Position numbers and translations under genes: made by a program | Source of the DNA: Gonapodya sp. JEL0774 | Lineage: Eukaryota | Direction: 5' to 3' | DNA: 64,000 nucleotides | NCBI GenBank assembly: GCA_027604505.1 | Contig: JADIIX010000028.1 | Span: 62,001 to 126,000 of the forward strand | Shown here: piece by piece, positions 21,972-44,816 of the stretch | Numbering within the stretch: the first letter of the stretch is position 1 | Layout: every line of letters starts with the position of its first letter | Notes under the pieces: generated by a model | Seen by the model: only the letters and a program-made list of their open reading frames with translations | Told to the model about the DNA's origin: nothing | Databases searched by the model: none

Positions 21972-22533
21972 CGTGTGGGATGCAACGAGTGGTCTTCTGA
22001 TGTATTGTCGTATGAGTGGACACTCAAAACACATGACCTCCCCCAACATCTCCAAACTGACAACAGAATAATCGCTTGGATGCAAACCTACTCCATGTAT
22101 AAATGGAGTAGCAAAAGTAAATCCAACGTCTGTATTTATGCATGGAGTCACGGAGTTTTTGTGAGGAAGCAGGCAGAGCAAGTGTCCGGGTCCGGAACCA
22201 AGCAGCTCTCTGCAGAATGTCCACCCATTTCTTCTGCGAACTCACCTTCTAACTGTTCTCGAGAAACGTCAAAAACCATCGGTTCATCGTACTGCCTCCC
22301 TCTCTTATCGCCTTTCTCTTGGTGTCCGAGAAGCAGTCCTATCTGTCCCAGTACGCCACCATCGCTTCCCTCCCCTCCCCCGCAACCTGCACAGATCTGG
22401 GCCCGCATATATCTACTTATCTACTTCGTACTCTAAGGTGCGCAGAACGTTTTCAGAACGTGTTGTTTGTCTTGTTAACCTGTTTGTTCTGTGGAACAAT
22501 GTTGCTGATTCCGGAAATCTTGATTCGCAGTCC

Positions 22534-25500
22534 ATGTCCCGCTCCAGTCCTACATCGTCGGCAGCCAAACTGATTGAAGCTGTCGAGCGAGGAGATATTC
22601 TTGAGGTTGAGAATCTGCTCACCAATGGAGCGGACCCGAATGCTGTCAAGACGGTGACTCTCTTACTGTTGAACAAGACCGACACAGTAAACGGCGAGAG
22701 CGCGTTGGCACTCGCAATATTGCATGGACACGATCAGATTGTCGAAGTACTCCTGAAACACGGAGCGGACCCGATGCAAAAAATTAGCTGGATTATCAGT
22801 GAATATCCCGAACATGGCGAAAGCTGGACGATCCAGAAATGGGATAATCGTTGGAGATACAAGTTTTCTTGTACTGATGCACTGTCACTGGCGTGGGTAG
22901 GAACGTGCAGACGGGCAGAGTTTCACGAAAATGGCGACGAGTCAGTTGCAGTGGAAGTCAGCGAAAAGGTGTTGATCAACATGCCTGGAGGCGATGTTGT
23001 GCACATACTGGACAGCGTTTGGGGCCACACACCGAATGAACGCTCTGTTCTCTACAGAGAGCACAACCTGCACCTCCAACCCGCTGTTCTTATCGCACTT
23101 CGTAAATGCAGCAGCGCATACATTCGCGTGGTTTATACTCTGAATATTCCTGCTTTGAGTCCTCATGCTTTGCGAAACTACTTGGAGGCGATGTTTAAGT
23201 ATTTGGAAGACCTTCAGCGTGAACTACAAGTGGAGAGGGCTGAGCACAAGGAGTGTCAGCAGCTCCTTGAGAGAGCTCAAGTGGCAAATTTACAAAAGCG
23301 CAAAGAGCTCACTGGAACAACTGTGGCTCCGGAATTAGGTCATCCAATACTGTCCACTGAAATCAACCAGATTCGGGCGCGGGATCCAGGGACTGAAGTG
23401 GCGAGACAGCACGTCCTTGATTGCCGTCTCCAAAAGTTAGAAGCACAGGTGGACCATGTCAGATCCGCTTTGAGCTCCCCGATGACGCCTGAAGGCGACT
23501 TGCGGAGCCATTTAGTGATGGTTTTGATCAAGTTAGAAGAACTCCGATGTGATCTCAGTTCGGAGAGGAAGGAGCATGCAGAATGTCAACGGATGCTCCG
23601 AAGAGTGGAGGGGGACACTGCAGATTGGAGTGCGAGACACGATCGGATACCCGGAGACTCTGCGGGGGCAGCTCCTATGGTCACTTCAGGAGAAGCCGTC
23701 CAAAGAGATCAGGAAAGGGTGAATGTTATGGATAATGAGACGGTGGACAGTCACGCAGCCCCGAATATACCCGCAATCGTCAGCCAACTCAATGTTGTCC
23801 AACTCGAATCAAGGATGAATCCACGGCCGAATGGTTCATCCACCAGCGCACGAAATTCTCAGCAGACGAGGCCTTCTGCGGTAGCATCAGATTCTGGGGG
23901 GAGCAAGTTGGAAATGGAAATTTCCAGGTTGCAGCGCGGCCTTGAAGCGAAAACAAACTCGTGTATAGATCTCAAAGCGGAACTCGTGCAGTTCAAAGGC
24001 AAGTTACAACAACTTGAAATCGACAACGTACAGCTGCGAAAAGATCTCAAGCGAGCAAGGCGCGGTGCACGCTCGGTTGTTTTGAAAGCTAGAACTCATG
24101 CAGCTCGGCATCAGGAAGAACTCGATCATATACGATCGAAACTGAACGAGGGGATTGTTTCGTTTGAGCGTGCTCTTATGATCTCGGAAACAGAGGGATC
24201 GTCAAAAGAGCAAGGCAAACGGCGAATGGAGACAATTCGAAGTCTTGAAACAGATGCGGAGGTCCTCCAAGATCGACATGGTTCTGATTCTGCGGACCAG
24301 CACGCGAAACAAAACGAGCTTGACGAGAAAGTGCGTAGTCTGGAAGAGGAGAAAGCGAACCTTGAAATTGAGCTTAGGAAGATGAAATCTAAGGCAGATG
24401 AGGCGTCGAAGCGAGCCAACGCAGTGGAGACCAGTCGAAGTGAGCAAGAAATTGAACTTGGGACTTTGAGAATTGAGCTTTCGGCTGCGGAGACCAAGAT
24501 AAAATCACTCGAATATAGAATTGGTGAAATGACCACAGAAGCGAGAGACAGCGTGACGGCAAGGGCGGTCCTATACCAAAATTTAAGCACATGGGAGTCA
24601 AGAGCAAGACGAGCGGAAGAGGAGCAAGCGAGTTCGCAGATCACAAAAAAAGAACTAGATGCTCAGCTTACTACTATGAGAGGTACAAATGAGGAGGCGT
24701 CAAAGCGAGCCAAAGAAGCGGAAATGGTCCGCGATGAGCGAGAAGCGGAACTTGTGGATTTGAGAGAACAAGTCTCGGTTGCGAAGAGCACGATAACAAG
24801 GCTGGAGTCTGAGGTCGCTGTCATCAAGAAAAACTCTGCAACGAGGATCGAGGAGCTCGAGACTCGAGCACAAGAAGCGAAATCGCAGACAGCGGTGCTT
24901 CAACGCAAAATTGCGGAGCTCCAAATCGAAAGAGGCCGAATCTCCGCATCCAAAAATACAATGGAGTGCCAGCTTACAGCCTCTAACCGTCAGTTGGAGA
25001 CTGTTCGACTCGACTTAGAGGCGGCAAATGGACAGCGTGATACTGCTGTGCGCACCAAAGTAGACTTGGAAACGAAACTCGAGGCTAGCAAGCAGGAGTC
25101 GGAGCGTCTTAACGGGGTAATCCGAGCTCATGCACTCCAAGTCGAATGTTTACGATCTACAAATGCCTCCTTAGAAACGGAGTCGAGGAAAAAGATAGAG
25201 GCGCTCACTTCCCAAGTCGCCAAGCTGACCAGTACTAACGCAGAACTCCAATCACGTCTCAGAGGGAATCTTGAAGAGCGGTCTGCTGAGCTTTCTGCAG
25301 CGACCGAGAACTTGAAAAACATCACCTCACAACAGACCTCGACATTCGAACGCATGATCGATACTATTAGGCGTGAAGCAAGCGATGCCAGGCGCGGGGA
25401 GATGGACTCGAAACTCGATTTGATCACCGAGAAAGTTGAGGTCCTGCGTACAGAGTCTCGAGCATCTCTTGAAGACGTACGGCAACTCATGATTCGAGGC

Positions 25501-26036
25501 AAGCGAGCTCGAAGTCCTGAGGTGTCGGATGGCTATGGGGATTACATGTCACCAAGCGAAGGCTCTTCTAGAGGAAGGACGGTTGGAATGCATGAGGTGA
25601 GTCAAAGGATCTGAAATCGCATTCTCACTTTGAAAGTACGCACGTGATGGCGGAAAGACTCTCCTCATGTCCATTTTTGATAGCCTGATCTTCAACGTGG
25701 TTCGGATAGACGAGGTGCCAAACGTCCCAAACTCCTCAGTGGTCCGTCGCCGGTGAGGATGCTTGCGTGCTTCCAGATTTGTGCACCCCGCGGGTTACAT
25801 TAGTCACTGCTTTCTCATCACAGCCTATTGGTGAAGGAAACGACGATCCTGACATCTCTCAAAATAGTTATTCCGATATATCCACTCTCATGAAATGGCA
25901 CGAACAGATATCTCAAAGGGAGCGGGATCTCGCTCGGCGAGAGTGGAAGTTAGCAGAGGATGAGAAAAAATTGAAGGACATTGAAGCTTTTGCGATAACG
26001 CGAATTTTTTCTTCGAGCCAGCGTGGGAACAACTGA
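22534..26036 (+). CDS. N-terminal ankyrin repeats plus long coiled-coil protein
   Basis: Exon of >1000 codons encoding LIEAVERGDILEVENLLTNGADPN and GESALALAILHGHDQIVEVLLKHGADP, followed by about 550 aa of heptad coiled coil. Two short 3' exons end at 26036. Confidence 0.8.
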
Positions 26037-28014: not shown

Positions 28015-28602
28015 TCAGCAGTTCACAGTTGTCTCACTTCGCCACCGCGCACTCACCTCCTGCCCGCCAAAAATCCAGGTCATCGCCTTATGTACCAGCG
28101 ATGTTGGAGTCCTCGTGCTGGATGTGAATTCACGAGCACGCTCCTCGATCATCTCGAGTTTCTGGCGTAAACAACGGATCTCCGAGTCCTGAGAACTTAT
28201 TCGCCTCTCATTGGAATCCACGAGCGATCGAACTTTGTGGATCTCGCCCCGACTCTCCTGTATCTGCCTGGCTTGGTTCTCCATCACCTGTTTCGAACGA
28301 GCGAGATCTTCCTGAGCTGACCGCAGCGCAGTCTCGAATGCTTTGATTGTGTCTTTCGCGCGATCAAGATCCTGCAAGACGACGCGAAGATTTTTCTCGA
28401 GATGATTGTCCTGCGTGCCGACAATCGGAGTCTCTTCGGAGTCCAGCTGCATCAGATCTTTTGGTAGTTCCTTCTCCGTGACTACTTCCGTGTTTGCATC
28501 TTTGGATGTTATATTGATGGGTTTCTCTTGGCCTTTTGAGTGGTCCAAGACCGATTTGGTGGCTGACTCGTTCGGAGGTGCCTCTGCTTGGTTCCCCGTC
28601 AT
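28015..28602 (-). CDS. Hypothetical coiled-coil protein (195 aa, single exon)
   Basis: ATG-initiated ORF with clear heptads (LRVVLQDLDRAKDTIKAFETALRSAQEDLARSKQ...). Confidence 0.6.
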   Translation of the reverse strand: MTGNQAEAPPNESATKSVLDHSKGQEKPINITSKDANTEVVTEKELPKDLMQLDSEETPIVGTQDNHLEKNLRVVLQDLDRAKDTIKAFETALRSAQEDLARSKQVMENQARQIQESRGEIHKVRSLVDSNERRISSQDSEIRCLRQKLEMIEERAREFTSSTRTPTSLVHKAMTWIFGGQEVSARWRSETTVNC

Positions 28603-28832
28603 TGTAGTACTTGTAGTGCCTGGTAACAGGAGTACGTTAACGGCAATTACCGTCCCATATGACTACTCAGAGTTACAACGTCAAGAATTGAACAGCTCCT
28701 ACCGATAGCGGAAGCGTCGGTCGGTCCAAACGTGTGTCCGACCTTTGAGGTAATTGTACGTGCTGTCAAAAGTAATAATCCCAAATTTTAGAGAATGCAA
28801 GTGGAGGACCTAGGATGAGGAACAGAGATTCT

Positions 28833-29399
28833 CTACGAACGGGTACAGGGTGGAAATGAAGGCGGCAATACCAGAACTTGAGAGTATGACTTTTTTGCCG
28901 AAGGGTCTTTTTCTGAAGTATTGTTTCCGGTCAGCCCTGCTGACTGTAACTGTACTTTTACCTCGGCGGGACTGGAGATGATCTTCCAAACGGTGGACCA
29001 GTGATTTTCCACCAGGGAGTATAAAATCATTGCGACATGTTCTTTGGTTGTAAGGTGCCGCTCCGCCAAGCGCGTTATTATGTCCAGAAATCCCTGGTTG
29101 CAAGAATGGGCGAACTTGCGGTACGTGTCTGAAGGCGCATGGCAGTTGGGAAAGCTTCGTATAAAGTCGCAAATGTACCAGCAGGTCTCTACAAGCTCGC
29201 TTTGCGAGACTGATGAAAAAACTGCCACTGTTTGATTTCGATTTGGGGTAACTCCACGTTTCGTGTGGAAGATCTCCTGCGAGCGCATGCTGAGGTCGAC
29301 GATTTTATCCAGCTTACGTTGATCGACATGGTTGGACATGTTTGATTGATTTAACATGTTTTGCACTAGATAGTGTGGTGTTTGAACGGACGGAGGCAT
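28833..29399 (-). CDS. Hypothetical protein (188 aa)
   Basis: ATG-initiated ORF with helical, protein-like composition. No family recognised. Confidence 0.45.
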   Translation of the reverse strand: MPPSVQTPHYLVQNMLNQSNMSNHVDQRKLDKIVDLSMRSQEIFHTKRGVTPNRNQTVAVFSSVSQSELVETCWYICDFIRSFPNCHAPSDTYRKFAHSCNQGFLDIITRLAERHLTTKEHVAMILYSLVENHWSTVWKIISSPAEVKVQLQSAGLTGNNTSEKDPSAKKSYSQVLVLPPSFPPCTRS

Positions 29400-29753: not shown

Positions 29754-32700
29754 ATGACCGAGATGCGAGCACTCCGTATGAAAACCAGCGAGCACAAGGA
29801 CAACAACAAGAAGCAAGACGTTATTGTTGTGAGAACGAGACAGCTGGTAATCCACATCATTTCCAGTTCTGTTGCTCATCCTGACAAGAATTAGGTTGTG
29901 GACGGGTCCGGTTCCATCAACCGAGCGACATTTGAAAACGAGGTCAAGCAGTGCGTTCTCGCACTTGCTGCACGCTTTGATCCGTCGTGTCAGATGGCAT
30001 GCATCCAGGTGCGGTATGAGCCGCTATCCCTGTTCCCGGTTTCATTTGCTATGTCAATAACACCCACTTCTGCCTGCCAGTTTGGAAGTTCAGCCACTGT
30101 TGAGAGCGAGTTGACGTCAGACAGAACAGTGTTCGAAACGCGTGTATTCGGTCAGTATAGTGCACATTTCAATTGTGATCCAACCATGTGAATGACTAGT
30201 CCTATCTTCCATCGATTCGCTCAATCTCCAGGAATGCGCCAAAACTCTGGAGGAACAAACGCAGAGGCAGCGCTTGAAAAGGCTATCGAAGTATTCAGTC
30301 GCACCACACGTCCCGAAAATGCCCGACAGGTCTGGTTCATCACGGACGGAGACTACGACAGCGATCCGACTTTGATCGCTCAAAAACTCAAACGCCAGGT
30401 GAACTTTCACATAAATCAAATTCACTTGTACGAATTTCCTCATTCTCTAGCGTGAACTCTTAGAATGTTGCGTTGTGCACAGCAATTGGAGTTGGCCCCC
30501 AAGTTACGATTGGGAAGCTTCAAAAGATTTCGAGTTTTGGTCGGACGTTCAAGGTCCAAGACTTTGCGAAAGCGTATGATTTTGTGACCAATGAAGTTGC
30601 AGGTGAGTGGTAGGCGTTGATCAGGTACCGAACTAATCCTGTTCCGCACTAACGCAAATCGATTTGCATCCGACAGTGGAGCTGCCCCGTGAGCAATATG
30701 CTTCCATCTCGGTGCAAACTTTGGTTGGAATGAGCAAACTTGGGACGGAAATTCCCTTGCAAATCTGCGTAAGTACAGATAATTGATCTGTGCATCTTGA
30801 TCTTCATGAACTCCCGATTCGATGCATTTTGAATTGCCAGATCTCCAACATCGGCACGCATTCGATTTGCAAAGACAGCCAGCTTCTCATTTCGGGCAAG
30901 CCTTATTTCTTGCAGGAGACCATCCCCATTACCGATGTTCTCAACACGCACGATTCGGTGACCACAGTCACCGTTCTCAAGCCCCGCAATCCTTCCAAGG
31001 AGAATTCACACTCCCGCATCGGCGGAACGACAATCCCAGTTCTCCCGGCACATTTTGTGACCCTCATTGATGACCTGCCGGGGCTCCTTCAGCTACAACT
31101 CCTGGATCCCTCTGGGAAAACGATTGAACTTCGAGAGGATGCCGCGATTATGGAATGCGGTAAGCACCTTCATTCAATTGCTTCACGTCCCTTTCTCTTG
31201 ACAATGTTATCCTTAAATCAGAGCTTTTCGCTGGAGATGCGCGGCATTTTCGAATCCCAGCACAGTCCGTGAACCTTCTGCTGTTCGGACCAACTGGTTA
31301 GTACTCTTCGATGACAGGAGTTTTCGCATTGGCATGAGAAGAACTGAGCGATCCTTTGTGCTTCTCACCAGGTGCTGGCAAGAGTTGCCTCGTGAACGGA
31401 ATCCTCACAACGATCTCTGATCGCGTCCAATCCATCGATATATCTGGCGGGGACCACAAAGGGATCACCTCCGACTACCTTGAGTTCCATTGCGGAATGG
31501 TGTCCGGCTTTGACGGCTTTGACATCACGTTTTACGATTCTCCGGGTCTGGAGATTGACGACGACTATGGAGCCGCTTACAAGGGTGACGAGGTCGGGTT
31601 GATGCTCGACGGTATCCTCAAACCGAACACTCAAGTGGTGGGCAAGGTTATCAAGTACGATGATCTGCAATTGCAGAGGGACGCTGCCGACATTGAAAGG
31701 AGTCGTATGATTCATGTAATGGTTCTTGCAATTCCACAAGCTACGGTGGAGAGTTCTGAGGTATGAATTTTTCTGATTCTCAATATTGCCGCATATTAAG
31801 TACCTGGGATGTTTCAGGAAATGCGAGCGTTTATCGACATTTACAAGAAGGTTGCGCACGTCTTCAGTGAGTCCTTTTACAAGTTGCTCTTGTTGGGACA
31901 TCCATTAATATGAGCATGCCATGTCCAGAGCGTCCCGTTGTCATTGCAGTCACATACATGGATGAAGGTGCGTTATCTCTGCTATGTTGATGTGATTGGC
32001 AAAGTAGGTCCACCTATTTCCTTCAAACAGTTGCGTCGTTGGATGAGTCCGAAAATGTTTTGAAGAGAGTCGCGAAGGAATTTGGAATCGGCCGTCGGTT
32101 GATTTGTCCGATACGGAACTACTTCTCTGAGAAGGTTTGTGTGGAAACATCCCTCTTTTGAGTAACCCACAACAGAGCCAGTATCGGTCCTCAATGAATT
32201 CGTTTTGTCACGCAGGAGAAGGACTTCGAGATGGACCGCAGGTTGATGAGGTTACTTTATACGTGTTTGAACGAAGCATCGACGTTCTTGACGAGGGAGC
32301 ACTTTACGCCAGGTAGTGTCTTTGTGGAGCTTCCTCTCCGCTGAACTTACGCTCATCAGTTCGTTTTCTTGACAGCCAAGTCTCAATTTCCAGTAAACCA
32401 TCTAGCCGTACACACTCGTGGGACAAACTCGACTCCCTCTGCACAGGGTTTCTTTCATGCGGGGTCTCTTCAATCGATAACAAACTCCAACGCCCCTCCC
32501 AGCTCCGCCACTTTATTGCCTGTCCTGACCTCTAGACAATCGCCGCTGAGGATTGTGGGAAGCTCAGGTGCGACACATTTGACACCACAGGCTGAACGTT
32601 CGATTAGGTTTGACACCAGCGTACAATGAACTTCAAATCGTTTCAGAAGAAAAGCTTGTTGCTTTCATCAAAGCGATGCTTCCGCCGCCAACCACCGACG

Positions 32701-33267
32701 ACACGGGGGTGATCATCACTGCCATCGAGAAGGCTTTCCGCGAGACGCATTCCACCAAGTTTAAGGATGCAAATTCTCGCAAGGAGTCTCTTTTCGATTT
32801 TGTGAGCCGCTATCCTGAAGTGTTTGCAGTTCGCCTGCCACTTGGCCCTTCGAAACGTGGCATTGCCATGATCAGCCTCGTTCCACCGCCACCACCAGTC
32901 GTCCTTCCTCCGTCCGAAGAGAACATGGATGATGATGATGACGACTTTCTGGACTTGGAGACTGACGAAGGTGAGCAGCCTTGCTGTAATCCGGGTCCTT
33001 TGTGGTGGACAATTCAATAAAGTCTGTTCTTTTCCTTCAGATGGAGTCCCCACCAAATTCAAATGTCCCATTAGTGGAGTGCTAATGGAGGATCCCGTGA
33101 CAATCGACGATGGAACCGGAGTCTCGTACGAGCGTTCTGCGATTACTGCGTGGATTGATTCCAAGGGGACTTCACCTCTCACGCGCAAGTCAGTCACACG
33201 CTCAAGCGTGCAACCGGATGCCGTGTTATTAACAGCAATCGAGAGATTTGGAAGGGAAGAGTTGTGA
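29754..33267 (+). CDS. Multidomain VWA + IFI44-like P-loop GTPase + OST-HTH/LOTUS + U-box protein, multi-exon
   Basis: VWA MIDAS: VVDGSGS...GGTN...FITDG. GTPase: LLLFGPTG|AGKS, FYDSPGLE, IHVMVLAI, IAVTYMD, IRNYFSEK|EKDFEMD. LOTUS-like: GVIITAIEKAFRE...SLFDFVSRYPEVFAV. U-box: PTKFKCPISGVLMEDPV...YERSAITAWI...SPLTR. The splice junctions checked from the GTPase C-terminus to the U-box keep the frame. Confidence 0.85.
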
Positions 33268-33489: not shown

Positions 33490-35616
33490 TCAAAAGATGT
33501 TTGCTCTGACGTTGTCGACAATGGCCTTCAATCCCGCCCAGTTCTCTTCTCCGGTTACCACGATCTGAGCTGGAGGAAGAACAAAACCCTGTCCAGATGA
33601 GGTCAGAAAGCAGCAATCAATCTAAAATCATGAACAAGAAAGCGCGTGAAGTACTTCATTTGCTCACCGTTGCTGTATCTGAAGAAGACGGGCGTAACTC
33701 GATAGTGTAAGAGAAGACACGACCCAGACCGTTCCGATCCTGTGTAACTTGAGCGTTTACAGCTTCGTCCCACGCGTAATCTACCGCTGTACCAGTGGCC
33801 GCGTACACTATGGGTGGGATTGATTGTACCAAGCATTACAGAGAGGGAAGTATTAGTTACGGATATTTGAATGTTCATAGTTTCTGACTCACGTTGTAAA
33901 GCGGCTTGACACGCATAATAAGTCATTGCGATATGTCAATTTGCAAACGAAAGAAATATACATAGTGAGTCAGCGATACTTACTCTGACTAACATAAGTT
34001 CGACCAGATTGGGCCCGTATCGCAGCAGCCGCGGCATCACCAGCTGCCCGCAACCTCGTAGCTTGTGCGGTAGGAACCGAGTAGCTATATCCCGGCGGCC
34101 TCAGAATGAGCTGGGAGTACGAATGGTAGTCGATGGAAAGGATGGCCCGTTGGAGAGAGTTCAAAAAGTTTGATGTGATGACCTTGGTCTCAGGTTCGGA
34201 GAGGGGGGACGGGCCTTGGTATGTTTCCGCACTTGGATTGGTAGAAGCACCTGCGGGATCCTGGAATAAAGTATAATACATGATGATTTGGTGAGAACGC
34301 ATTTGGGATGGATCTGACTCCAACAATCACTTACCACACCCCAGCCTTTTGGATAATTCCTAACAATTGCAAAAAAACATTGAGCCGAGCGGTAAATGGA
34401 TCACAGTAAACATATCAATTGAACGCTAGTTTGTCGTTCACCGGTTCAGATCAACTCCAACAGCTGTGGATGTGGTCGTTGCACGCCGGCGATTCTTCCT
34501 CCATAGCCTATTGGTTGTCCACGTGTACTCGTAACCATCGGGGTTGACAACAGGGACGATCAAGAATTCAGTCGCCCGGAGTGTGCGGACCGCCCAAGCG
34601 TTGTCGGGGCTGGAAGCGTTCGAGTACGAAGAGGCCAGCTTGTACGCCAAATACTGAACAGTCGACCCTGCCACCCATTCGCGAGCGTGGATGAGACCTT
34701 GAATGTAGATTTGTTTCGCTGTTGCGTTTCCGGTGCCGATTCGAACCATGAAGAGGTTGCGCCCCTCGAAGGACGACCCGATGGAAGCATTCACAGAGAC
34801 AATTGTGGGGTACTGCGCTGCCATGGAGTTGAAGAATGCGCGAATGTCGTTGAAACGATCTACATGTATATATTAGGTGTGAACTTGCAGTGCCGCCGAT
34901 TGATTGATAAGATTCAAACATGTACTCACGGTAGGCAGTGAACCACGTTGCAGGCGAATAGACTCCGGTTTGTCTCTTCATCAAAGCCTGCATTCGGGTA
35001 AAAGGTGTGTGCTCGGTGAGCTCAGACCCAAACGGCTTTCATTCGCTGTCCGAAAGTAGAACAACGCACGGCAGAAGATTCGATCTCTTTGGTCTCCTCA
35101 TCGATGGCCGCCTGGATGTTATCGTTGACAATCTCCACTGTTGCAGCGGAGCTGGCTTCCAGTGCTGCGTCAGTGATAGCTTGCAGATCATCCGGGGTAG
35201 GGGCGAGAACATCGATCTGCGAGGGGAAAAGGGAGCACACGTCTTAATCGTACGCACAGCAGTCAATCCACCGGTCAAAGTGATATACGCACCGCGCGTC
35301 CCCCATCGTCCAAGTCCAAAACACCCCACACATCGAGCGAAAACAGGTTCCGAAATTTTGCCACGAGTTCCGAGCGGATAGCATCACTGTCCCCTAGTTC
35401 CGTGGATGGTACAGTAACACGGACAAGCATTTGGTTGTCATAACGAACGGTCGGGGCTTTGTGGTAAATGCAAATGTAATGTGGTTTCCGTGCTGATCGC
35501 AATGATGATCAGCTCTAATCACGATTGTAAAACTGACCACGAATCGGGGCCGCCACTGCAAATGCGCAAAACGCAAAGCTAGCGATAATCCCGCTCAGAA
35601 ACCGTGAGGTCTTCAT
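33490..35616 (-). CDS. Secreted zinc carboxypeptidase, M14A family, with propeptide
   Basis: Signal peptide MKTSRFLSGIIASFAFCAFAVA. Motifs IHAREW, NPDGYEY, WRKNRR, GVDLNR, IDYHSYSQ, YTIELRP, GFVLPPAQI. Stop at 33490-33492. Confidence 0.92.
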
Positions 35617-36562
35617 GCTTTTCGCTCAGCCGTCGTCAGAGCGAACAGGAAATATGCTGCGATCGGGGGAGATGGCATCACTTTTATAGCGAGGTAATGG
35701 AAGGAAAAAGGATCACGCCTGAAATATCGTGACATTTCGCTGCGACGCAAAACGCGAGGTGGGGTGAGTGAATTAGTGGTAATTCGAGGGATTGGGGAAA
35801 CTGATCTCAAATTTTTCTTTATAGGATCCGTCCCCCACCTAAGGTTCACTCATACGAAAGGTTTCAGAAGCATACGAAAACACTATTACACGTATAGCCG
35901 AATAACTTTTCACGGCAATTGTACTGCTATTTGTGCGCTCAGACGTTATGTCACAATAATGAAAGCCATTGTAGATAGGCTTCGCTCGTTCCTCACGGGG
36001 GAGCAAAACAAACTATTGTCCATAGAAACTCGATATAACATCAGTTCCATCACTTGTTGTTGCGTGAGGTTCGGTCCCTGATTTATTTCTGAGCGTCCGG
36101 CGGGAGACGTGAGACGCGAAACCCACTGAGCGGCTGTACTTCAACCATGACAATTGAAAGACTATGCTCAACTATTTGAGAAAAATCCGATGTGGTGTCA
36201 GATTCCATTGGGTATTGTGACCTCCGAACCGATGATTCATTATCCCATGCAAGTTAAAGGAAAAAGTGATAGACTATGATAAAATGGAAAACTTAGGCGG
36301 AAATTAGCTCTATCAGCATTTTGTAGAACGGGATTTTGTGTCACGCGAGATGGTACCTTTGATCTATCATCGGAATTGTGTGGATTGAGCACGAACTACA
36401 CAGACGAGACAGAGTGACAAGTCCATCGATAAAAAAAACCCTGGAATAGTCATTTTAAAATGAAGGAGTTTGTGTTTCTTGGGGCATGAAGAGTGAGACA
36501 AGCACGGGTCACGACCATTCTAGCTTATAGTGCACATGTTACGAGTTACAGCTCAAACAAGA

Positions 36563-36658
36563 GATCAGCAATCACTACTTGGGCTCAAAAACATCAGCTT
36601 TCGTGATTTCCGTAGATTCCGGATTGTTTCTCGAAGGCGTCATCATCCATTGTTGATC
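36563..36658 (-). promoter_or_regulatory. Type II eukaryotic SECIS element in the 3' UTR of the SelenoU gene
   Basis: Minus strand reads ATGAC-GCCTTCGAGA-AACAA-TCCG-GAATCTA-CGGA-AA-TCACGAAAGC-TGAT. This gives the AUGA/GA quartet (36643-36639 and 36596-36593), a 10-bp helix II with 2 mismatches, unpaired AA and an apical mini-stem. Flanking GATCAACAAT/ATTGCTGATC can form a lower helix. Confidence 0.85.
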
Positions 36659-36711
36659 ACTTGGTGCTTTGTTTTGATCCGAAGCTGCTCCATTGTTCAT
36701 CAAGATTCCAT

Positions 36712-37540
36712 TTATGTCGCGACAGAGTCCCTTCTCTCAGCTTTCGCTTTTTCTTGTTCCGTCATTTCATCCCAAAACCGGAACGCGCCAGCTTCCTTCC
36801 AGTCTGCGATGCCTGCCGCCTCCAACAGGGTGGGCACTGTCGCGTGATCCGCATTAAATCTGTCGAAGTGGACAAAAGAACACTCCCGCAAGCCCGGTCC
36901 CAGCACAAACGCACCGCCTTGCTGGCGCGGGTCACCTTGGGTTCCGCCGCCCGCTACACCCATGGCGAAACCCTTGATCCACGCGGCCGGAACAGTGGTG
37001 CGCACGTGGGGACTGGCGACGCGATATTCCAGTTTGGAGTCGAAGCGGAAATTCATGTTGAGTGCGGTGTAGAGGGAGCGTGTAGGGTTGGAATACATTG
37101 GTAAGGAGAGGCGGGTTTCTTTGATGAAGCGTCGCACAGCCCATGCTGGTGCAGGGGTAATGAGAACGATTCGGACCTTGCGTTCAGCGAGGACTAACTT
37201 GTCGACACGATTGAGGTCGACGAAGTAGTCTCTGTTTTCGAAGTATTGCCCGTCGCGATTCAGTTCAGCGAAACCACGACGGTGATGAGCCACAACCGGC
37301 ACTGGCGATGTCGATACGATACATAGACGGGATGCAAGCTACTTACCGGCAAATGTATCACAGCAGATTTCTTCCAAACACCACGATCGTCCGTGTCCCA
37401 TCATCACGGACGTAAAGTTGGTGAAAAGCAACGGAGGTGTCGGTGTCTGCGGTGGTATCGACGACGGAGAGATTCGCGACGTTTTCAAATGGAAAAAGCG
37501 ACGGATCCGAGAACTGTTTTTCGTTGTGTTGATGCGACAT
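36712..37540 (-). CDS. SELENOU: Selenoprotein U / PRXL2C (AAED1, AhpC-TSA_2) homologue with Sec at codon 61; exons 37540-37347 and 37231-36712, 237 aa
   Basis: Spliced frame RTIVVFGRNLL-[TGA 37360-37358]-YICR|DYFVDL aligns with PRXL2C VVVFVRHFLCYICKEYVEDL. C-terminal GDPRQQGGAFVLGPG...H. SECIS lies about 70 nt after the TAA. Confidence 0.9.
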
Positions 37541-37662
37541 GTATTATTCAGGCGGCAGAGGAAGGGGAAGAGAAGAGACAAGACTGAGTGCAAGCAGGGT
37601 TTCAGACCACAGTCATGACGTTCAGCCGGTCCTTTCGACACCGCAGTTGCCAACCAACAATT

Positions 37663-39215
37663 ATGAACTTGTCCGACTTGCCAGATGAGCTGCTCTCGTA
37701 TCTTTGCAGGTAGTTAGGCACGTCGGTGATTCTTCTTGAAGTCACTAACTAGCTTACGACTCCGTAAATCGTTCAGTGCTGCGGTCCCTGTCGATTCACT
37801 TCGACCTCTATCTTGCACTTCCCGCCGGTTTCGAGACCTCCTTTCGAATCCTGAATCAGCTTTGTGGTCAGCTGTATGCAGGCGACTTGGTCGATCGGTG
37901 TGGAAAACTCCTTCGATGAACTGGCGAGGCATTGCTTTATCACGCATGGATCAAACATGTCCCCACCTTCCTCGCGTCCTCGATGATGAATCCGTGCAAT
38001 TTATGAAACAAACAATTCAAACTCTATACTCTGACCCTCAACTCGCGATGGATTCCTGGGCATGTATGGAGGGGGGCTGCAGTTGGAAGTACCCTGACCT
38101 GTGGGTCTGTTTAGATTGTGGGAGTGTCGGATGCGGAAGAAACAAAGCCAAACATGCCCTCAAGCATGCGAGAGATCATAGACATCCACTAGCTATGAAG
38201 CTGTCGAGCTGGGAGGTAGGAGGTTCACACTTTGTGTAGGACTTTCTCGACATTCCAAGAATACTGACATGATCCCTCCCGCCCGCTGTCCAGCTGTGGT
38301 GTTACGCTTGTGACCCTCGATCTACGGAAGGGAAAGATAGGTTCTTCGAAGTGTCGCCTGAAACCCCTCTCCGCTCCATGACAAAGGGAAAGGTGAACTG
38401 CTGACGAATCTGTGTTTCAGCAAGAGAAGCTAACACCACACCATTACCTCACTTTGTCTACAGTGGCTTGCATATCCATGTGGTGATCTCGTCGAACGTT
38501 TTGCCGTTGAATGGCTCATCAAAAGATTCTCGGACGTTGTAGCGGCATCAGTTGTAAGTGTTCGGATCGCACCTGCTCCCCTGTGTCACCCTGTTCACAT
38601 ACTACATTCGAAGCCCCCCATAAATATCAATCCCCGCCGTTCCATCGAGCGCCCCCTCTCGGAGCTCAAGCGAAATCAGGAGCTTTGGCTCGTTAGCCCA
38701 CAGTGGTATGAACGATGGACGAGGTTCGTCGTCGGAGATACGTCAGAACCTCCTGGTGGTATCAGATTGGACGGGCTCTATGTCAGGAGCGATGGGGGTG
38801 GAGGGTGGATATTGGACCCCAACGCTACCGAATGGGATGTGTGAGTGGTTCATCCAGCGTACCGTGCGATTCCCTCCATATCTCATACTTGTGCTGGCTC
38901 TGCTGACCTGCTGGCCACATAAGCTGGTTCTTGCCTGCCTCTTCAATGCCTTACATCCTCGAGCACTATCCACCGGCAGATCCCGAACGTCCACCCATCC
39001 CCGAGCGCGACATCCCCACAACCCCGACTTTTGCATGGCTCCGGTCTATGATTTTTAGTGTGAGGAGGCAACTTAGCTTACAGGATAACGACGCGGTGGG
39101 GGCAGATCTCGGGCAGCAGGCGGGCCAACAAGAGCCGAATGATGATGATGAAGAGGACGAAGATGAAGATGAAGACGCAGAAGATTCAGGGAGCGAATCA
39201 GATCTCAGTGATTGA
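37663..39215 (+). CDS. F-box + ZnF-UBP + DUSP-like domain protein with acidic tail, multi-exon
   Basis: F-box: MNLSDLPDELLSYLC|...LSCTSRRFRDLL...LW. ZnF-UBP: CPHL...LWVCLDCGSVGCGRNKAKHALKHARDHRHPL...LWCYAC. DUSP-like: LWLVSPQWYERWTRFVVGDTSEPPGGI. Confidence 0.78.
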
Positions 39216-39448
39216 TTCACGGGCGAGAATTCCACATGTTTGGAACTGTTTGGTGTTAGGAGGGTGTTGGATGTGGTATTCACGGAGTGGTCATCCCATT
39301 AATATCGGATAATTGACGCGTCTTGATGCAAGTTTGCATTATTATTGTGAACCGACCTTTCTCGACCGTGGTGAATAAAGTTCGGCTTGACCGGTTCCGA
39401 AAGCCCAGTCTCCCAGCACACCAGATTCCGGTAACGACAGAAGCTACC

Positions 39449-42400
39449 ATGAAGGTTCACTTCGTCGGAAAACGTCCGCCTACTGAGTCAGGCGCGCCCA
39501 ATCCTCCAACGGCCGCTTCGTCTGCGCGGTACCGGATGTCTGTCTTCGCGTCGCATTTGTCTCCGGTATCGGCATCAAAAGAGGACGCGAGAGCCGCACA
39601 AACGGAAGCTGAGGACAAAAGGCCAGGCATTCTTATTGCAAATCGAGGGGAGATTGCGATCAGGTGAGTTGCAGAGGACGCTGGATGCTGGGAGGTGATA
39701 ATTCTGGGTGTGGAAATCGGAGTGAAAGCACTGTCATTCATGATTGACCTTACACATTCCCAGAATCGCGGACGCCGCTTCCTCGCTAGGTTTTCGCACA
39801 ATTTCGATCTTCTCCAAAGACGACGATCGTTCCCTCCACACCAAAAAGACGGACGTCTCCGTTGCCCTACCGGCCTCCGGACCTGCCGCATACCTCGATG
39901 TAGACTCGCTCATTCGCGTTGCCAAAGAGTCCAACGCGGTTGCAATCCACCCGGGGTACGGATTTGTCGCCGAAAGTGAGGACTTTGCGCGTCGGTGCGC
40001 AGAAAGTGGGTTGGTGTTTGTGGGTCCCGCACCTGAAGTGCTCGAGGTGTTTGGAGACAAAGCAAAGGCGCGTACCGTTGCTCAGAAGAGGTGAGCTGTG
40101 TACCATACTCTGCGCTAGGTGCTAATCATTTAGTTGACCTGACCGTCCACCGTTCAGTAAAACCCCAACTGTCCCAGGGACACTCCGCGCAACTTCGCTT
40201 GCGGAAGCGGAAAGCTTTGCGAGAACAATATTTGTGTCTCCAGAATTCAAGTCGGGAGTGTTTGGTGGAGTGATAGTGAAGGCATTGTTCGGTGGAGGGG
40301 TGAGTGGCGCAGGGTACCCGGTAACCCATGGTCTAAACACACTTCGGTTTGCGCGTAATTATGTAATCACTACTCTGATATCGTTATAGGGACGTGGTAT
40401 GAGGGTTGTTTCGTCACTGGACCAACTTCCCGACGCTTTTGCGAGGTGCAAGGGCGAAGCCAAGTCAGCTTTCGGACGTGACGAAGTCTAGTGAGTTTCG
40501 TGTTTCCATCCATTTGAGAAAAGCTGAATTTTACATTGTATGATTGACAGCGTTGAAGCACTACTGGCGAAAGCCCGACAGTGAGTCGTTGGTGTTCGTT
40601 TTTTGGTGAAGAATAAGATGTATTTTATACCGCTCCCTCATTATAGCATCGAAGTTCAAATCGTCTCGCCGCGCAACCCCACTCCAGAAAATCCTCCATT
40701 GTATCTTCATACGCGTGATTGTACGCTCCAACGGCGCCACCAGAAAGTGGTGGAGATCGCCCCAGCCCCCAAGCTCCACCCAGAGATCACTCGAAAGCTT
40801 GGAGAAGCGAGCGTGCGGATGGCACTGGAAGTGGGATATTCGGGACTCGGCACGTGGGAGTTCCTCGTCGTTGGTGGAGAAAAGGCGGACGCAGCATGGT
40901 TTTTCATCGAAGCGAATCCGAGAGTGCAAGTCGGTGGGTTTTGGAGAGCAAATCATCTCATAGGCGTATTGCAACACAACCTTAAACCTTGGTCTAGAGC
41001 ACACTGTCACTGAGGAGATCCTTGGGGTTGACCTCGTTGCTGCGCAAATTGAGATTGCCCTCCACAATAAAAGATTGGCAGATACTGTACTTGGGTTCGG
41101 ATTGCAGCAACACGTACCACAACCACAAGGATGGGCCGTGCAGCTCAGGGTGAACGTGAGTTCCAAGCCCCAATCTTTTGAATTAATTTTCATTTAATCA
41201 TAGTGTGGCTACATTGGTGTCCATAGATGGAAAAGGTTGAAGAGATTCAAGGTTCTCAAACTTGGGTGTCGACTTCAGGAGGTAGGATGTCTTAGCCCTG
41301 CATCACGGTAATCTCGCGTCTTTCATACATCAGGGCCTGCATGCAGGGGTCGTGTCCGCATTCGAACCCCCATCTGGACGTGGAATTCGCGTTGACCACT
41401 GCGGCTACCCAGGATATCAAACGAATGCGAACTTCGACCCTCTACTCGCAAAAGTCATCGTGTCCTCCCCTCGTGGCACCCTCTTTGACGTCTTCCGCCG
41501 ATGTGGCCGTGCCCTTGATGAGTTCAAGATCACTGGTGTTGAAACCACAATCTCGTTTTTGCAGGCAGTGCTTGTGGAGACCGACGTTGTGCAGATGGGT
41601 GATTCCAAGTCGGGCAAAGTGGAGGTCTACACTCGATGGATTGACGATCGGCTGAACACTCTCTCTGCAAAAGCTGGTTGGGGAGAAAGTTCTGCAACAT
41701 CTTCAGGAAGCAGTCGCAAAGCTCTCTTCTTCGCTGCAGATCAAGCTGTCTCTTCACTTGCACCCACAGCCCAGGCGGTGCATATTCAAGGACCACCGGG
41801 GACGGTCCCCGTTGTCGCTCCGATGCAATCCACCATTGTCTCTGTTGATGTAAAGGTCGGGGACTACGTCAAGAAGGGCCAACAAGTAGCCGTTCTGAAC
41901 GCGATGAAGATGGAGCACGTGGCGTTTGCTGATAGTGCCGGTATTGTGAGGTGCGAACTCAAACTTTGTGCGTCAAAGCTTTCGGGGCCTTTCTCAAATG
42001 ACATCATTCTGTGCAATTGCTGTATTGACAATATAGGCTCATTGTTGGTGAACCAAACGTTACCCTTCCAAAGTCCGCACCAATTCTTTTCATAGAACCG
42101 GCCAGCACCAGCACAACGGATGAAACTTCAATTTCGGATGCTTCCACCGTGGATGTAGATCGTATTCGACCGGATCTAGCGGAAGCTATGCGACGTCATT
42201 TCTTGACTTCCGACGAGAGTAGACCAGAGGCAGTAGCCCGGCGGAGAAAATTGAACAAGAGGACAGCTCGCGAAAATGTTGGGGACTTGTGCGATGAAGG
42301 CACATTTTTCGAGTGGGGAGGCTTGGTTATAGCCGCGCAAAAAGCTCGGAGATCCATGGACGAACTAATAAAGCAGACGCCTGCGGACGGCATGATCGTG

Positions 42401-44816
42401 TGAGTACTGCTGATGTGTCGCGAACAATGCGCAGCTCACTTGTCAATTGCTGACTAGGGGAATCGGGCATGTGAATGGAAATTTATTCGATGAGTTGCGC
42501 TCGAGAGTTATGGTGTTCGCGTACGACTACACCGTGCTTGCTGGCACACAAGGAGTATTCAACCACAAGAGTAAGACAGTATAAGCCTGAATGCCTGATT
42601 ATTTAGAATATTCGTAATTCCGTGGTTGATCCTTTAGAGAAAGACCGCATGTTCCAACTGGCCTTTGAACATCGCTTACCCGTCGTATTTTACTGCGAAG
42701 GAGGTGGTGGGCGACCTGGCGACACAGAGGGCTTATCGAACAGTGGTGGACTTGATATTATGACGTTCAGACATGTAAGTGACTGCTGTTTCTGCCATAT
42801 ATCCCCGATCAAACTGATCTTGCTTTATAATTGCAGTTCGGGAAACTCTCAGGCCTCGTCCCCATGATTGGGATCACCACTGGATACTGCTTCGCCGGAA
42901 ATGCTGCATTGCTGGGCACTGTAAGTGTCCATTTTCGAATTGCCTATTCGAGAATTTTGCAAAACACAACCTTCCACAAACGTCAAATTCATCAGTGTGA
43001 CGTAATAATTGCGACGGAAGACTCGAACATCGGATTGGGAGGCCCCGCAATGATCGAAGGTGGTGGTCTGGGGGTTTTCAAACCAAAAGAAGTTGGCCCA
43101 GTTCAGGTTCAAAATTATAATGGGTGAGCAAAGTGTTCACAGTTATCATTGTGTAGTCACTTCGAGTAAACTGGAGTATTTTTCTTTTCGTGTTCTTTTC
43201 ATTTCGTACATTCCTTCCTTTGAAAGTGTCATCGGTGAGTTGTCAATGCAGTTATGCTTGAGCGAATACCCTTAATAAAACCGCTTGCGATTCTTTCAGA
43301 TGTCCTTGTTAAGGATGAGGTGGAAGCCACACGGGTCGCAAAGAAGTACTTGAGGTAGTTATTGTCCACGTTTATGCGCTGATCGGAGGGAATCTGTCCA
43401 TTTACGCAGTTTTCCTTCCTGTGTAGCTATTTCCAAGGCCCTATTCGAGAATGGCGATGCGCAGACCAGCGATTGCTCCGAGCCTCTATTCCCGAGAATC
43501 GTCTTCGGTCCTACGATGTTCGCCAAGTAATGCAACTGTTGTTCGACCAAGACAGCATTCTGGAGTTGAGAGCCCAGTGGGCGATTGGCATTATCACAGC
43601 TTTTGCTCGTGTGGAAGGTCGCGCAGTCGGTGTTATCGCTAACAATTGCACGCACCTGGGTGGGGCAATTGATGCGGAGGCTGGTGAGTTTTACCTTTCC
43701 TATTTGCTTTCGAATGTAGAAGATTGTGACTACAACTACGGGGTTATGCTCATGCAGGCGACAAGGCCGCTCGCTTCATGCAATTGTGCGACGCTTATGA
43801 CATCCCTATCGTCTCTCTCTGCGACACCCCAGGTTTTATGGTGGGGCCCGATCACGGTACGTGCCCAACAGATACTGCTCAATCTCTTACGAACGGTTCT
43901 TACGTTCCACTCCCTCAGAAAAAACTGCTATTGTTCGCCACGTTGCTCGGATGTTCGTGGTAGCCGGCTCTCTCACAATACCATTTTTCACAATTGTTCT
44001 GAGGAAAGGCTATGGTCTCGGAGCACAGGCTAGTGAGTATGTCTATCAGAGAGTAGCGAATACACAACACTTCGTCTTTGGTCAAAGCTATTGAATACCT
44101 CATCTCCCTTATTAGTGTGTGGTGGGAGCTTCCACGGTCCCATGTTCACCGTCTCTTGGCAAGTTTTGTGCGAGGTCTGTTGACCCATTACAGGTGAACT
44201 AACAAGAACACTTCCTTATTTCATCACGCTATACAGGCCGACAGGGTGAGTTGATTACCGTTCCCCTCCGCATGTAATATCACTTTTATCTAACGTAAAC
44301 TGTATCTGCTACACCTTTCGTTACTTAGAGAGTTCGGGTACGTCGGTCATTTCATTGCGTGAAGCCACCTAACTGACAAGATATCTCTGCCGGGTCAGTG
44401 GGATGGGTCTTGAAGGCGCTGTACGACTCGCATACCGAAATGAGCTCGCGGCTATCAAAGATCCGAAAGAACGCCTGGCGGCGGAGAACGCGGTGTGTTG
44501 CCGGTGTTACAAGGGACGGGTTTGGGGGCGTCCTTGTTGAATGTATTTCGACTCCATTACAGGCAATTGCGCAGTTGTACGAATCCGGCAAGGCGCTGAA
44601 AGCTGCAGAGTCACTTGATATCGACAATGTGATTGACCCAGCAGCGTCAAGGCGGTGGATCATGGCAGGTCTAAAAGCCAGCGTGGGCGGCAAAGTGAGG
44701 AAGCAGCCGTGTATCCACTTCGCGAATACCCAATTTGTTTGTTAAATTGAAATTTTTTTGTCTAGGGGTATGTTCCTGGTCAGTCAAAACGGAGACCGTG
44801 TGTTGATACATGGTAG
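39449..44816 (+). CDS. Single-chain biotin-dependent acyl-CoA carboxylase (BC-BCCP-CT; long-chain acyl-CoA carboxylase type), many introns
   Basis: BC: ILIANRGEIAIR, AIHPGYGF, RDCTLQRRHQK, FIEANPRVQ. Biotinyl lysine: NAMKMEH. CT: RTARENVGDLCD, DYTVLAGTQG, EGGGGRPGD, DTPGFMVG, WPTGEFGGMGLEG. Ends RRPCVDTW at TAG 44814-44816. Confidence 0.92.

Follow-up and report, generated by a model that had tools for sequence, protein, structure and literature searches.

Gene structure and domain organization

The gene described here occupies positions 29754-33267 (+) of a window comprising the whole 64,000-nucleotide stretch of DNA analysed from Gonapodya sp. JEL0774, an early-diverging fungus. It runs from an ATG at 29754 to a TGA at 33267 as one open frame of 16 exons, and its 15 introns, spliced by coordinates, are all GT-AG and 52-81 nt long. 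From its second methionine (29763) the product is identical letter for letter to the NCBI protein KAJ3341444.1 (HDU93_004845, 829 aa), in agreement with the fungal origin proposed in the initial annotation. An alternative intron 14 of 40 nt (acceptor 32607) gave way to the NCBI model's intron of 52 nt. The predicted domain order is VWA, Ig-like β-sandwich, IFI44-like P-loop GTPase, a weakly supported LOTUS-like winged helix and U-box, and these identities are nearly certain as assigned. All pieces named in the initial annotation were recovered in place on the + strand.

29754-29828, 29895-30008, 30081-30150, 30232-30398, 30464-30602, 30677-30768, 30841-31159, 31222-31296, + strand: exons 1-8, by in-frame splicing
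31372-31760, 31818-31866, 31929-31967, 32031-32134, 32216-32312, 32376-32567, 32620-32970, 33041-33267, + strand: exons 9-16, by in-frame splicing
29817-30583, + strand: VWA domain, aa 19-179 (Pfam VWA E 3.8e-24; pLDDT >90; Foldseek VWA matches)
30688-31158, + strand: Ig-like β-sandwich, weakly CARDB-like, between VWA and GTPase, aa 190-322 (all-β; pLDDT mostly >90)
31263-32296, + strand: IFI44-like P-loop GTPase, aa 337-568 (profile, HHalign, ESM Atlas)
31287-31385, + strand: G1 motif GPTGAGKS, aa 345-352, split by an intron (sequence)
31467, + strand: G2 threonine T380 in GITSD, aa 378 (sequence)
31536-31547, + strand: G3 motif DSPG, in DSPGL, aa 403 (sequence)
aa 461, + strand: IH motif, IHV (sequence)
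31952-31963, + strand: G4 motif TYMD, aa 502 (sequence)
32117-32122, + strand: NY motif, RNY, aa 535 (sequence)
32376-32567, + strand: exon 14, an S/T/P-rich disordered linker (pLDDT <50; codon score -0.088, the lowest of the 16 exons)
32646-32840, + strand: weak LOTUS/OST-HTH-like winged helix, aa about 647-711 (Cyanophora profile, Atlas)
32880-33042, + strand: proline run and acidic, Asp-rich spacer upstream of the U-box (sequence; pLDDT <50)
33046-33255, + strand: U-box E3 ligase domain, aa 757-826 (Pfam U-box E 1.5e-13)

The VWA-Ig-GTPase core and the LOTUS-like/U-box tail very probably form a single predicted polypeptide, as had been proposed. In-frame splicing yields this as the best model, it equals the NCBI model, and Cyanophora homologues combine core and U-box in one chain. 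Gene prediction could instead have fused two neighbours, a VWA-Ig-GTPase gene ending at the TGA at 32343-32345 and a separate winged helix/U-box gene; the low codon score of exon 14, the stop met after 11 codons when intron 13 is read through, and the many relatives that terminate shortly past the GTPase fit such a fusion. This is nonetheless improbable, as the sole in-frame ATG within 32313-32700 encodes Met657 (32676), where a start would remove helix 1 of the winged-helix domain. In addition, introns 13 and 14 are canonical and share phase 1, and each of the Cyanophora proteins P0008 and P0012 is a single predicted chain that carries this core together with this U-box variant. Because both of its flanking introns are in phase 1, skipping of exon 14 would preserve the frame.

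In the predicted structure, the VWA, Ig-like and GTPase domains reach a pTM of 0.71; a single-sequence AlphaFold model gave a pLDDT of 35. The MIDAS of the VWA domain is intact, as the initial annotation had it, with DxSxS at 29901-29915 (D25, S27, S29), T92 at 30255 and D122 at 30345, and is complete in 11 of the 17 VWA rows examined. The β-sandwich that follows was absent from that annotation. It scores 33 bits (E 4.6e-8) against a leave-one-out family profile, and its naming as Ig-like or CARDB-like is weakly based on a Pfam CARDB match (E 3.8e-4, under the cut-off) in one of five homologue domains scanned. Foldseek with the whole model placed VWA domains top in PDB and BFVD and named neither the β-sandwich nor the GTPase, and with PADLOC and NCBIfam the matches were all generic (P-loop or VWA) and below cut-off. 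The protein is predicted to be cytosolic, since no signal peptide or transmembrane segment is apparent (hydropathy maximum 1.3).

The GTPase domain

The motifs GPTGAGKS, GITSD, DSPGL, IHV, TYMD and RNY are all present, in the order previously noted for the GTPase. The domain scores 102 bits against a profile of seven TLDc+GTPase proteins, covering positions 10-246 of 253, and HHalign gives 99.9% (E 3e-35, 244 columns). ESM Atlas scores are 0.96-0.97, an 'interferon-induced protein 44-like' cluster scoring 0.96. It is very improbable that the domain is instead a generic AIG1/GIMAP, septin or MMR_HSR1 GTPase with a superficial likeness to IFI44. The best Pfam GTPase match is indeed MMR_HSR1 (20.7 bits, E 4.8e-4, under cut-off), and septins are the top PDB matches of the family profile (E 3e-9). 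However, the IFI44-type profile scores five-fold higher and aligns near full length, and neither AIG1 (PF04548) nor septin (PF00735) matches the protein at Pfam E<=1. AIG1/GIMAP proteins have their own hallmarks, namely the AIG1 domain, the conserved box and the IAN motif (PMC7053062). The AIG1/IIGP/MMR_HSR1-type proteins among the matches (P0050, P0093, P0147, P0148) score no higher than 29 bits per domain against the IFI44-type profile, and those bearing AIG1 align only to its start. Among solved structures, the closest relatives of the family profile are AIG1/GIMAP, septin, IRG and Toc34 GTPases (E 3e-9 to 1e-4), which have a TxxD-type G4; the matches to septin and other solved structures are partial and weak. 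The assignment as IFI44-like thus holds.

Family-specific motifs common to IFI44-like proteins argue further against a generic GTPase: among 136 domains, LxG is found in 136, IH in 121 and NY in 123-124, and the nucleotide-binding residues are kept in most (G345 133, K351 133, T380 124, D403 135, G406 134, D505 125), the family profiles being partly built from the proteins that they count. TYMD at G4 keeps the Thr and Asp and carries Tyr at the usual Lys position, which is occupied by Tyr in 6 of 136 domains, Lys in 59, His in 26 and Arg in 25; guanine specificity may therefore be altered. A pair of GTPase domains modelled with GTP and Mg, no alignment being used, scored 0.01, which gives no verdict on such a complex.

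The GTPase is homologous over almost its full length to that of animal IFI44/IFI44L, at about 25-29% identity. The two have in common G1 to G3, including the DxxG plus hydrophobic residue, the Thr and Asp of G4, and the family motifs LxG, IH and NY. The G1 GxxxxGKS, the G2 Thr and the G3 DxxG with its hydrophobic residue are described features of IFI44/IFI44L, in which G4 is incomplete in IFI44 and complete (T-K-x-D) in IFI44L (10.1101/2020.02.24.963900). Whereas the animal proteins carry TLDc, the Gonapodya protein has no TLD match at Pfam E<=1, its N-terminus being filled by the VWA and β-sandwich, and it adds the LOTUS-like and U-box tail. In an unrooted FastTree phylogeny it falls within a group of 78 rows that includes every one of the 24 VWA rows (SH-like 97), and a separate 58-row group holds all 8 TLDc rows and the named animal IFI44s. 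Lacking TLDc and lying outside the named animal group, the Gonapodya protein is a sister variant and not IFI44 itself, and by architecture it is no IFI44 orthologue.

The C-terminal tail

The U-box is complete, in line with the earlier reading, scoring 51.1 bits against a cut-off of 21.4 and covering profile positions 1-69 of 73. It carries a two-residue insertion (DGTG..SYER) that appears as a two-residue gap in all five PDB alignments listed, and the same stretch occurs in Cyanophora P0008 and P0012. A degenerate pattern of this variant matched two metagenome sequences, both chance hits to unrelated prokaryote/phage ORFs, and no viral ones.

For the winged helix, residues 673-709 score 13.6 bits (E 0.062 at Pfam scale) against a profile of 16 Cyanophora LOTUS repeats, with a best score of 8.6 bits in 2000 shuffles, and the Atlas leads are OST-HTH (0.86) and WHD_Egal (0.83), both under 0.9. 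Its helices are predicted at a pLDDT of about 40-60. The LOTUS-like identity claimed earlier has weak backing from the profile and Atlas scores and none from Pfam, in which LOTUS/OST-HTH (PF12872) gives no match at E<=1; the domain is a weakly supported LOTUS-like fold and a candidate RNA-binding module.

Relatives, phylogeny and neighbourhood

Relatives were gathered by HMMER library search, of which 150 are listed; word-seeded protein searches returned only the Gonapodya protein itself or six proteins. VWA and β-sandwich lie upstream of the GTPase in 21 of the 150, and carriers of this core include Synchytrium endobioticum, S. microbalum, Pharyngomonas kirbyi and Cyanophora paradoxa. The nearest relatives are about 25-30% identical and their tails are highly variable: many core members have tails of <45 residues, and others repeatedly bear modules of the ubiquitin system or related to RNA, namely a U-box (P0008, P0012), RING (P0049), ubiquitin-like domain (P0022), zinc ribbons (P0024, P0031, P0033, P0042, P0055), OST-HTH (P0013) or CCCH (P0008). 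P0014 has a signal-like N-terminus and a transmembrane segment. As most core relatives have neither LOTUS nor U-box (the latter in 3 of 158 collected proteins), ligase activity is not the core function of the family. With P0007 as query, a search for related loci among viral, metagenome and prokaryote genome contigs turned up none, nor did tblastn of P0007 match any phage; the alignment contained no segment of sufficient conservation to search with.

Synchytrium A0A507CAQ1 and A0A507BKD6 ('VWFA domain-containing protein') and Pharyngomonas kirbyi P011926 have the VWA-Ig-IFI44-like GTPase core, but with other tails in which no LOTUS or U-box is detected, and databases name their VWA only. The closest architectures are uncharacterised Cyanophora paradoxa gene models. 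EP00741 P006380 (P0008) is VWA-Ig-GTPase-CCCH-U-box with the same U-box insertion, and among P012802/3/5 (P0013, P0012 and P0011), P0012 is a degenerate VWA-Ig-GTPase with three LOTUS repeats and a U-box, again with the insertion. These proteins differ in their degenerate MIDAS, several LOTUS repeats and CCCH fingers, and are not sister to the Gonapodya protein in the core tree. The adjoining Cyanophora loci g12366, g12367 and g12369, each with three to eight LOTUS repeats, resemble the product of a variable tandem expansion.

A Gonapodya+Cyanophora clade is rejected in the core tree (p-AU 0.0375; LG+G4, biased compositions), whereas a fungal clade of Synchytrium and Gonapodya is compatible with it (p-AU 0.445). 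U-box identity between Gonapodya and Cyanophora (30/67 and 26/49) is about equal to that with a plant PUB, and this, together with the core-tree rejection, suggests that their common tail may be convergent. Recent transfer between the two is disfavoured by the same p-AU and a core identity of about 23-27%.

The initial annotation treated the architecture as apparently undescribed. A literature search found no paper describing a VWA-Ig-GTPase subfamily, and passages of 10.1101/2024.09.18.613514 and PMC11291939 make no mention of it, but the fusion is not unique, since GTPase, LOTUS and U-box recur together in Cyanophora and the core spans several supergroups. Fusions that join OST-HTH with U-box, RING or CCCH are also known and have been read as ubiquitylation of ribonucleoproteins (RNPs); as predicted for Gonapodya, Aureococcus Aano1000008826 has LOTUS and U-box in one chain, and one supplementary file of the same survey contains no occurrence of vWA, GTPase or IFI44 (PMC2848206). 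Recurrence of the layout in a distant alga makes an old, overlooked eukaryotic family likely, and the comparisons point to a patchy subfamily with swappable ubiquitin- and RNA-related tails. PANTHER PTHR14241 (the IFI44 family) has a subfamily labelled 'VWFA domain-containing', and automated classification may already link both.

The proposal that the gene sits in a lineage-specific block fits one flank only. In a Pfam scan of 144 of the 148 stop-to-stop frames of at least 105 aa, the gene's own four left out, the upstream region at about 10-29 kb of the window had no match except ankyrin, but the genes that follow downstream belong to recognisable families (M14 carboxypeptidase, AhpC-TSA protein, zf-UBP protein, biotin carboxylase and kinesin). 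No second copy of the gene is present within the 64-kb window, unlike many immune genes.

Proposed function

A putative active GTPase combined with an active E3 is fairly likely. The whole explanation offered here, a GTP-gated ubiquitin ligase in cell-autonomous defence, stands at about an even chance, and defence itself is the likeliest function, if a little short of even. In such a mechanism, the core VWA, Ig-like and GTPase domains would pack as one unit, in which the MIDAS-bearing VWA and the β-sandwich would grip a protein surface and the binding and hydrolysis of GTP would act as a switch for the core or drive its clustering. The LOTUS-like domain, on its floppy tail, may tether the protein to RNA or an RNA helicase. 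With an E2 brought in, the U-box would then ubiquitylate the target in its grip, be it an RNP of viral or parasite origin or, to serve as a signal, the protein itself. Immunity offers other NTPase-E3 fusions, including TRIM23 (RING and ARF GTPase), RNF112 (RING and GBP-like GTPase) and RNF213 (AAA+ and E3). They likewise combine a nucleotide-driven switch with a ubiquitin ligase on a single chain, but the analogy is of working principle only, as their NTPase families and ligase types are unrelated. Fungi are not known to have an interferon system.

IFI44/IFI44L are reported to restrict RSV (10.1101/2020.02.24.963900), IFI44 is upregulated in a Nematostella antiviral programme (PMC13319465), and Mx proteins provide a precedent for interferon-induced GTPases of pre-animal origin (PMC11326297). 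However, the G1 region of human IFI44 is reported to be dispensable for RSV restriction (10.1101/2020.02.24.963900), so the GTPase domain in common need not carry the antiviral function. The same biochemistry could also serve a housekeeping RNP-granule or protein-quality-control ligase, acting in nuage-like granule assembly or the turnover of mRNA or transposon transcripts, with no role against invaders. Fusions of OST-HTH, U-box and CCCH have been interpreted as RNP-assembly E3s (PMC2848206), LOTUS and CCCH modules dominate the Cyanophora versions, and the single copy within the window would suit such a role. This is unlikely, because the patchy spread, low identity and variable tails better fit conflict-driven evolution and the nearest studied relatives are antiviral.

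Rather less likely still is that the core acts at membranes or organelles, in autophagy or phagosome/vacuole traffic, with the U-box and winged helix as lineage-specific add-ons. The core is the conserved part of the family, with many short-tailed members, and the nearest solved relatives of the GTPase profile, septins, IRG/Irga6 and Toc34, act on membranes. P0014 has its transmembrane segment, and the TLDc of animal IFI44 has been linked to V-ATPase (PMC12139955). Against this, no transmembrane, lipid-binding or amphipathic module is seen in the Gonapodya protein, and its tail modules indicate RNA and ubiquitin.

Building on the defence reading, a broader and doubtful scheme would trace IFI44 back to an ancient defence GTPase of eukaryotes. 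Outside animals this would take the form of a VWA-Ig-GTPase sensor whose RNA-binding and E3 tails are interchangeable. The Gonapodya and Cyanophora proteins would retain a complete version, with sensor, GTPase, LOTUS and U-box, and would ubiquitylate viral or parasite RNPs, and the fusion would reveal the trans partners of IFI44, an E3 and an RNA-binding factor.

Significance

IFI44 and IFI44L rank among the interferon markers in widest use. A eukaryote-wide sister group, present in fungi, glaucophytes and Discoba, in which the GTPase is repeatedly fused to E3s and RNA-binding domains, provides a Rosetta-stone hypothesis for the function of the domain, and single-chain proteins of this kind would allow joint assay of the GTP, RNA and ubiquitin steps. 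The candidate cell-autonomous immunity of early-diverging fungi would be extended past NLRs and Mx; if the role is housekeeping, the proteins would still constitute an undescribed GTPase subfamily spanning multiple supergroups.

Gene model and neighbourhood

The locus at 29754-33267 on the forward strand is a real, intron-rich eukaryotic gene. Its 16 exons, separated by 15 GT-AG introns that measure 52-81 nt, splice by coordinates into a single open frame. Its largest GTPase exon is a 100% match to one database protein, KAJ3341444.1 (HDU93_004845, 829 aa) of the monoblepharid fungus Gonapodya sp. JEL0774, and the model with the intron 14 acceptor at 32619 equals this protein exactly when counted from the second Met. 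The initial annotation placed its domains on one polypeptide, and the rival is that two genes were wrongly joined: codon scoring ranks exon 14 last in the model, and intron 13, if left unspliced, runs into a stop. Against such a mis-joined pair, introns 13 and 14 share phase 1, so that exon 14 can be skipped with the frame kept, a separate downstream gene would have only one in-frame ATG to start from (Met657), which falls within the winged helix's first helix, and gene models of the glaucophyte Cyanophora paradoxa unite the same parts in one chain. The predicted product is thus very probably a single polypeptide. The features around the gene are as follows.

2198-6970: Sec15 and ankyrin genes
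8828-9397: weak PB1 match, near the two frames on the next line
9342-10019 (+) and 14838-15482 (+): frames with a similar unannotated C-terminal motif (…LG.P.W..QRSWGYKKVS…), which points either to a small repeated domain or to paralogy between the genes
22165-25611 (+): 1149-codon stop-free frame, apparently intronless in an intron-rich genome, with an ankyrin region (Pfam Ank, E 1e-7) and then a long coiled-coil-like stretch
28018-29399 (-): divergent upstream gene with two frames, one of 188 codons and one of 215 (the latter coiled-coil-like), and without a Pfam match; about 400 bp from the studied gene, possibly with a shared promoter
29754-33267 (+): the studied gene
33500-47300: conserved downstream neighbours, namely M14 zinc carboxypeptidase (-), AhpC-TSA_2 (-), zf-UBP (+), biotin carboxylase with carboxyltransferase (+) and kinesin (+)

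Domain architecture

Pfam bears out the two domains proposed for the ends of the protein, a VWA domain (aa 19-179, E 3.8e-24) in which all MIDAS residues are intact (D25, S27, S29, T92, D122) and a U-box (aa 757-826, E 1.5e-13); AIG1, Septin, TLD and OST-HTH are not among the Pfam matches at E<=1. An AlphaFold2 prediction from a 73-sequence alignment (mean pLDDT 78.5, pTM 0.71) begins with three well-folded domains in series: the VWA, one built entirely of beta strands (about 190-322) and the GTPase (up to about 575). Beyond them come a linker without order, a bundle of helices modelled with low confidence (647-706), a Pro/Asp spacer and, last, the U-box. The all-beta, Ig-like domain, absent from the initial annotation, is kept in relatives (33 bits with a leave-one-out profile); one of five homologue beta domains scanned gave a CARDB match below threshold, with other Ig-like families ranked behind. 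By hydropathy the protein has no signal or transmembrane segment.

The winged helix proposed as LOTUS-like is plausibly but weakly assigned. A profile seeded with an OST-HTH repeat that Pfam confirms (E 2.6e-8) and iterated within Cyanophora-type proteins only (16 repeats) gives aa 673-709 a score of 13.6 bits (E 0.062 on the Pfam scale). The top score among 2000 shuffles of that region was 8.6 bits, and the profile matches no other protein of the 158-protein set. The position fits, and the named ESM Atlas leads for the region are OST-HTH (0.86) and the Egalitarian winged helix (0.83). The best Atlas look-alikes of aa 640-724 of the query protein, P0001 (0.90), are proteins of 89-110 aa, and two such clusters are recorded as viral (Nucleocytoviricota, Uroviricota), which is no more than a lead.

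An IFI44-like GTPase

All GTPase motifs listed in the initial annotation are found in the spliced protein, where the best Pfam match of the NTPase is MMR_HSR1 (20.7 bits, below threshold). A phmmer search of 1.84 billion representatives with aa 323-571 as query found 156 matches at E<=0.001; TLDc is present in 5 of the best 150 of 156 (thresholds 1e-4 and 1e-6), and two of four TLDc matches looked up, one fish and one clam, are named 'interferon-induced protein 44-like' by NCBI. On a profile of seven TLDc+GTPase proteins, which excludes the query and was drawn from its own match list, a selection favouring similarity, the query scores 102 bits (positions 10-246 of 253), against at most 29 bits per domain for AIG1/IIGP/MMR_HSR1-type matches, which contradicts a generic GTPase; 134 of the best 150 of 156 matches reach at least 40 bits. 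Two independent routes agree with this score: HHalign of the VWA family alignment against the TLDc family alignment (99.9%, E 3e-35, 244 columns), and the ESM Atlas, where chordate clusters rank top, one named IFI44-like at 0.96. The closest solved structures are septins, IRG proteins and Toc34, all partial matches.

The protein is IFI44-like but not IFI44 itself: it is without TLDc and lies away from the TLDc rows in an unrooted FastTree of 136 domains (32 of 158 proteins omitted as partial or unrelated), where the 8 TLDc rows all belong to a group of 58 and the 24 VWA rows all to the other group, of 78 rows. Automated family databases may already assign VWA proteins to the IFI44 family. Across the 136 near-complete domains the G1 Gly and Lys (133 each), G2 Thr (124), G3 Asp (135) and Gly (134), G4 Asp (125), an invariant Gly (136), the IH motif (121) and the NY motif (123 and 124) are kept, which argues for a nucleotide site predicted to be working. 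The second G4 position varies; here it is Tyr, the residue in 6/136.

Two proteins from JGI contigs with TLDc and an IFI44-like GTPase, P0069 and P0080, are placed by the tree outside the rows from fish and molluscs, a hint that the TLDc fusion may predate animals. Streptophyta is the commonest phylum in two Atlas clusters of IFI44-like GTPases (0.93 and 0.91), and land plants therefore likely hold more non-animal relatives.

A family with variable tails

Profiles from 14 members place a VWA upstream of the GTPase in 23, the beta-sandwich in 29 and both in 21 of the best 150 of 156 matches; the VWA-Ig-GTPase fusion is a family rather than a one-off. Named members among 20 proteins looked up come from Synchytrium endobioticum and S. 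microbalum (Chytridiomycota), Pharyngomonas kirbyi (Discoba) and Cyanophora paradoxa (Glaucophyta). The full MIDAS is present in 11 of 17 VWA rows examined, and tails range from none to zinc ribbons, RING, ubiquitin-like, coiled coil, CCCH, LOTUS and U-box. Cyanophora P0008 reads VWA-Ig-GTPase-CCCH-U-box, and P0012 has the domain order of the Gonapodya protein (degenerate VWA-Ig-GTPase-LOTUS x3-U-box). All three share a two-residue U-box insertion missing from the five PDB alignments printed. The modest U-box identity between Gonapodya and Cyanophora (30/67 and 26/49) and the rejection of a Gonapodya+Cyanophora clade on the core tree (25 rows, LG+G4; p-AU 0.0375, compositional bias flagged) count against a special link between the two; a fungal clade is not rejected (p-AU 0.445). 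Either the full layout is ancient and was retained in two lineages, or like tails were added twice.

P0012 lies on Cyanophora tig00020629 (g12367) in a tandem cluster with P0011 (g12369) and P0013 (g12366), all with a degenerate VWA and an IFI44-like GTPase; P0011, P0012 and P0013 carry 8, 3 and 5 LOTUS repeats, C/H-rich fingers also occur, and the cluster is a strong candidate for a glaucophyte expansion of RNA-sensing GTPases. The VWA-Ig-GTPase member P0014/P0158, from Logan contigs, has a signal-peptide-like N-terminus and a transmembrane segment C-terminal to the GTPase, which would then face the luminal or outer side. P0007, on a JGI contig of up to 372 kb, and P0004 are complete VWA-Ig-GTPase proteins, each predicted as one uninterrupted frame and labelled as the prokaryotic GTPase EngB. 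Their source could be a eukaryote with few introns or a giant virus; neither turned up in scans of viral, metagenome and prokaryote contigs.

Proposed function

Fusions of NTPases with E3 domains are of a known kind, and the studied protein is best read as a putative cytosolic GTP-gated E3. A rigid VWA-Ig-GTPase unit would grip a target surface and be switched or clustered by its nucleotide cycle, the LOTUS-like domain would anchor RNA or a helicase, and ubiquitylation of the complex so held would fall to the U-box. By analogy a defence role is favoured, because of the antiviral record of IFI44/IFI44L in the available text of 10.1101/2020.02.24.963900 and PMC13319465, the patchy spread, deep divergence and swappable tails of the family, the Cyanophora tandem cluster and the Mx precedent (PMC11326297, available part). 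It is weakened by the single copy in the 64-kb window and by human IFI44, whose restriction of RSV did not need the G1 region according to the available text of 10.1101/2020.02.24.963900; the competing readings are an E3 with a housekeeping role in RNPs or quality control (PMC2848206, available part) and a core working in membrane traffic.

IFI44-like GTPases and LOTUS+U-box fusions (PMC2848206) are each known already; the supplementary file of the latter source, as far as available, lists OST-HTH+UBOX in Aureococcus and holds no vWA, GTPase or IFI44 entries. No description of VWA-Ig-IFI44-like GTPases or of their LOTUS/U-box forms was found in the full-text literature searched, outside which most subscription journals lie. 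The protein is a new architectural variant within a known GTPase family, and the gene appears to mark an undescribed subfamily that spans several supergroups and whose function is a prediction.
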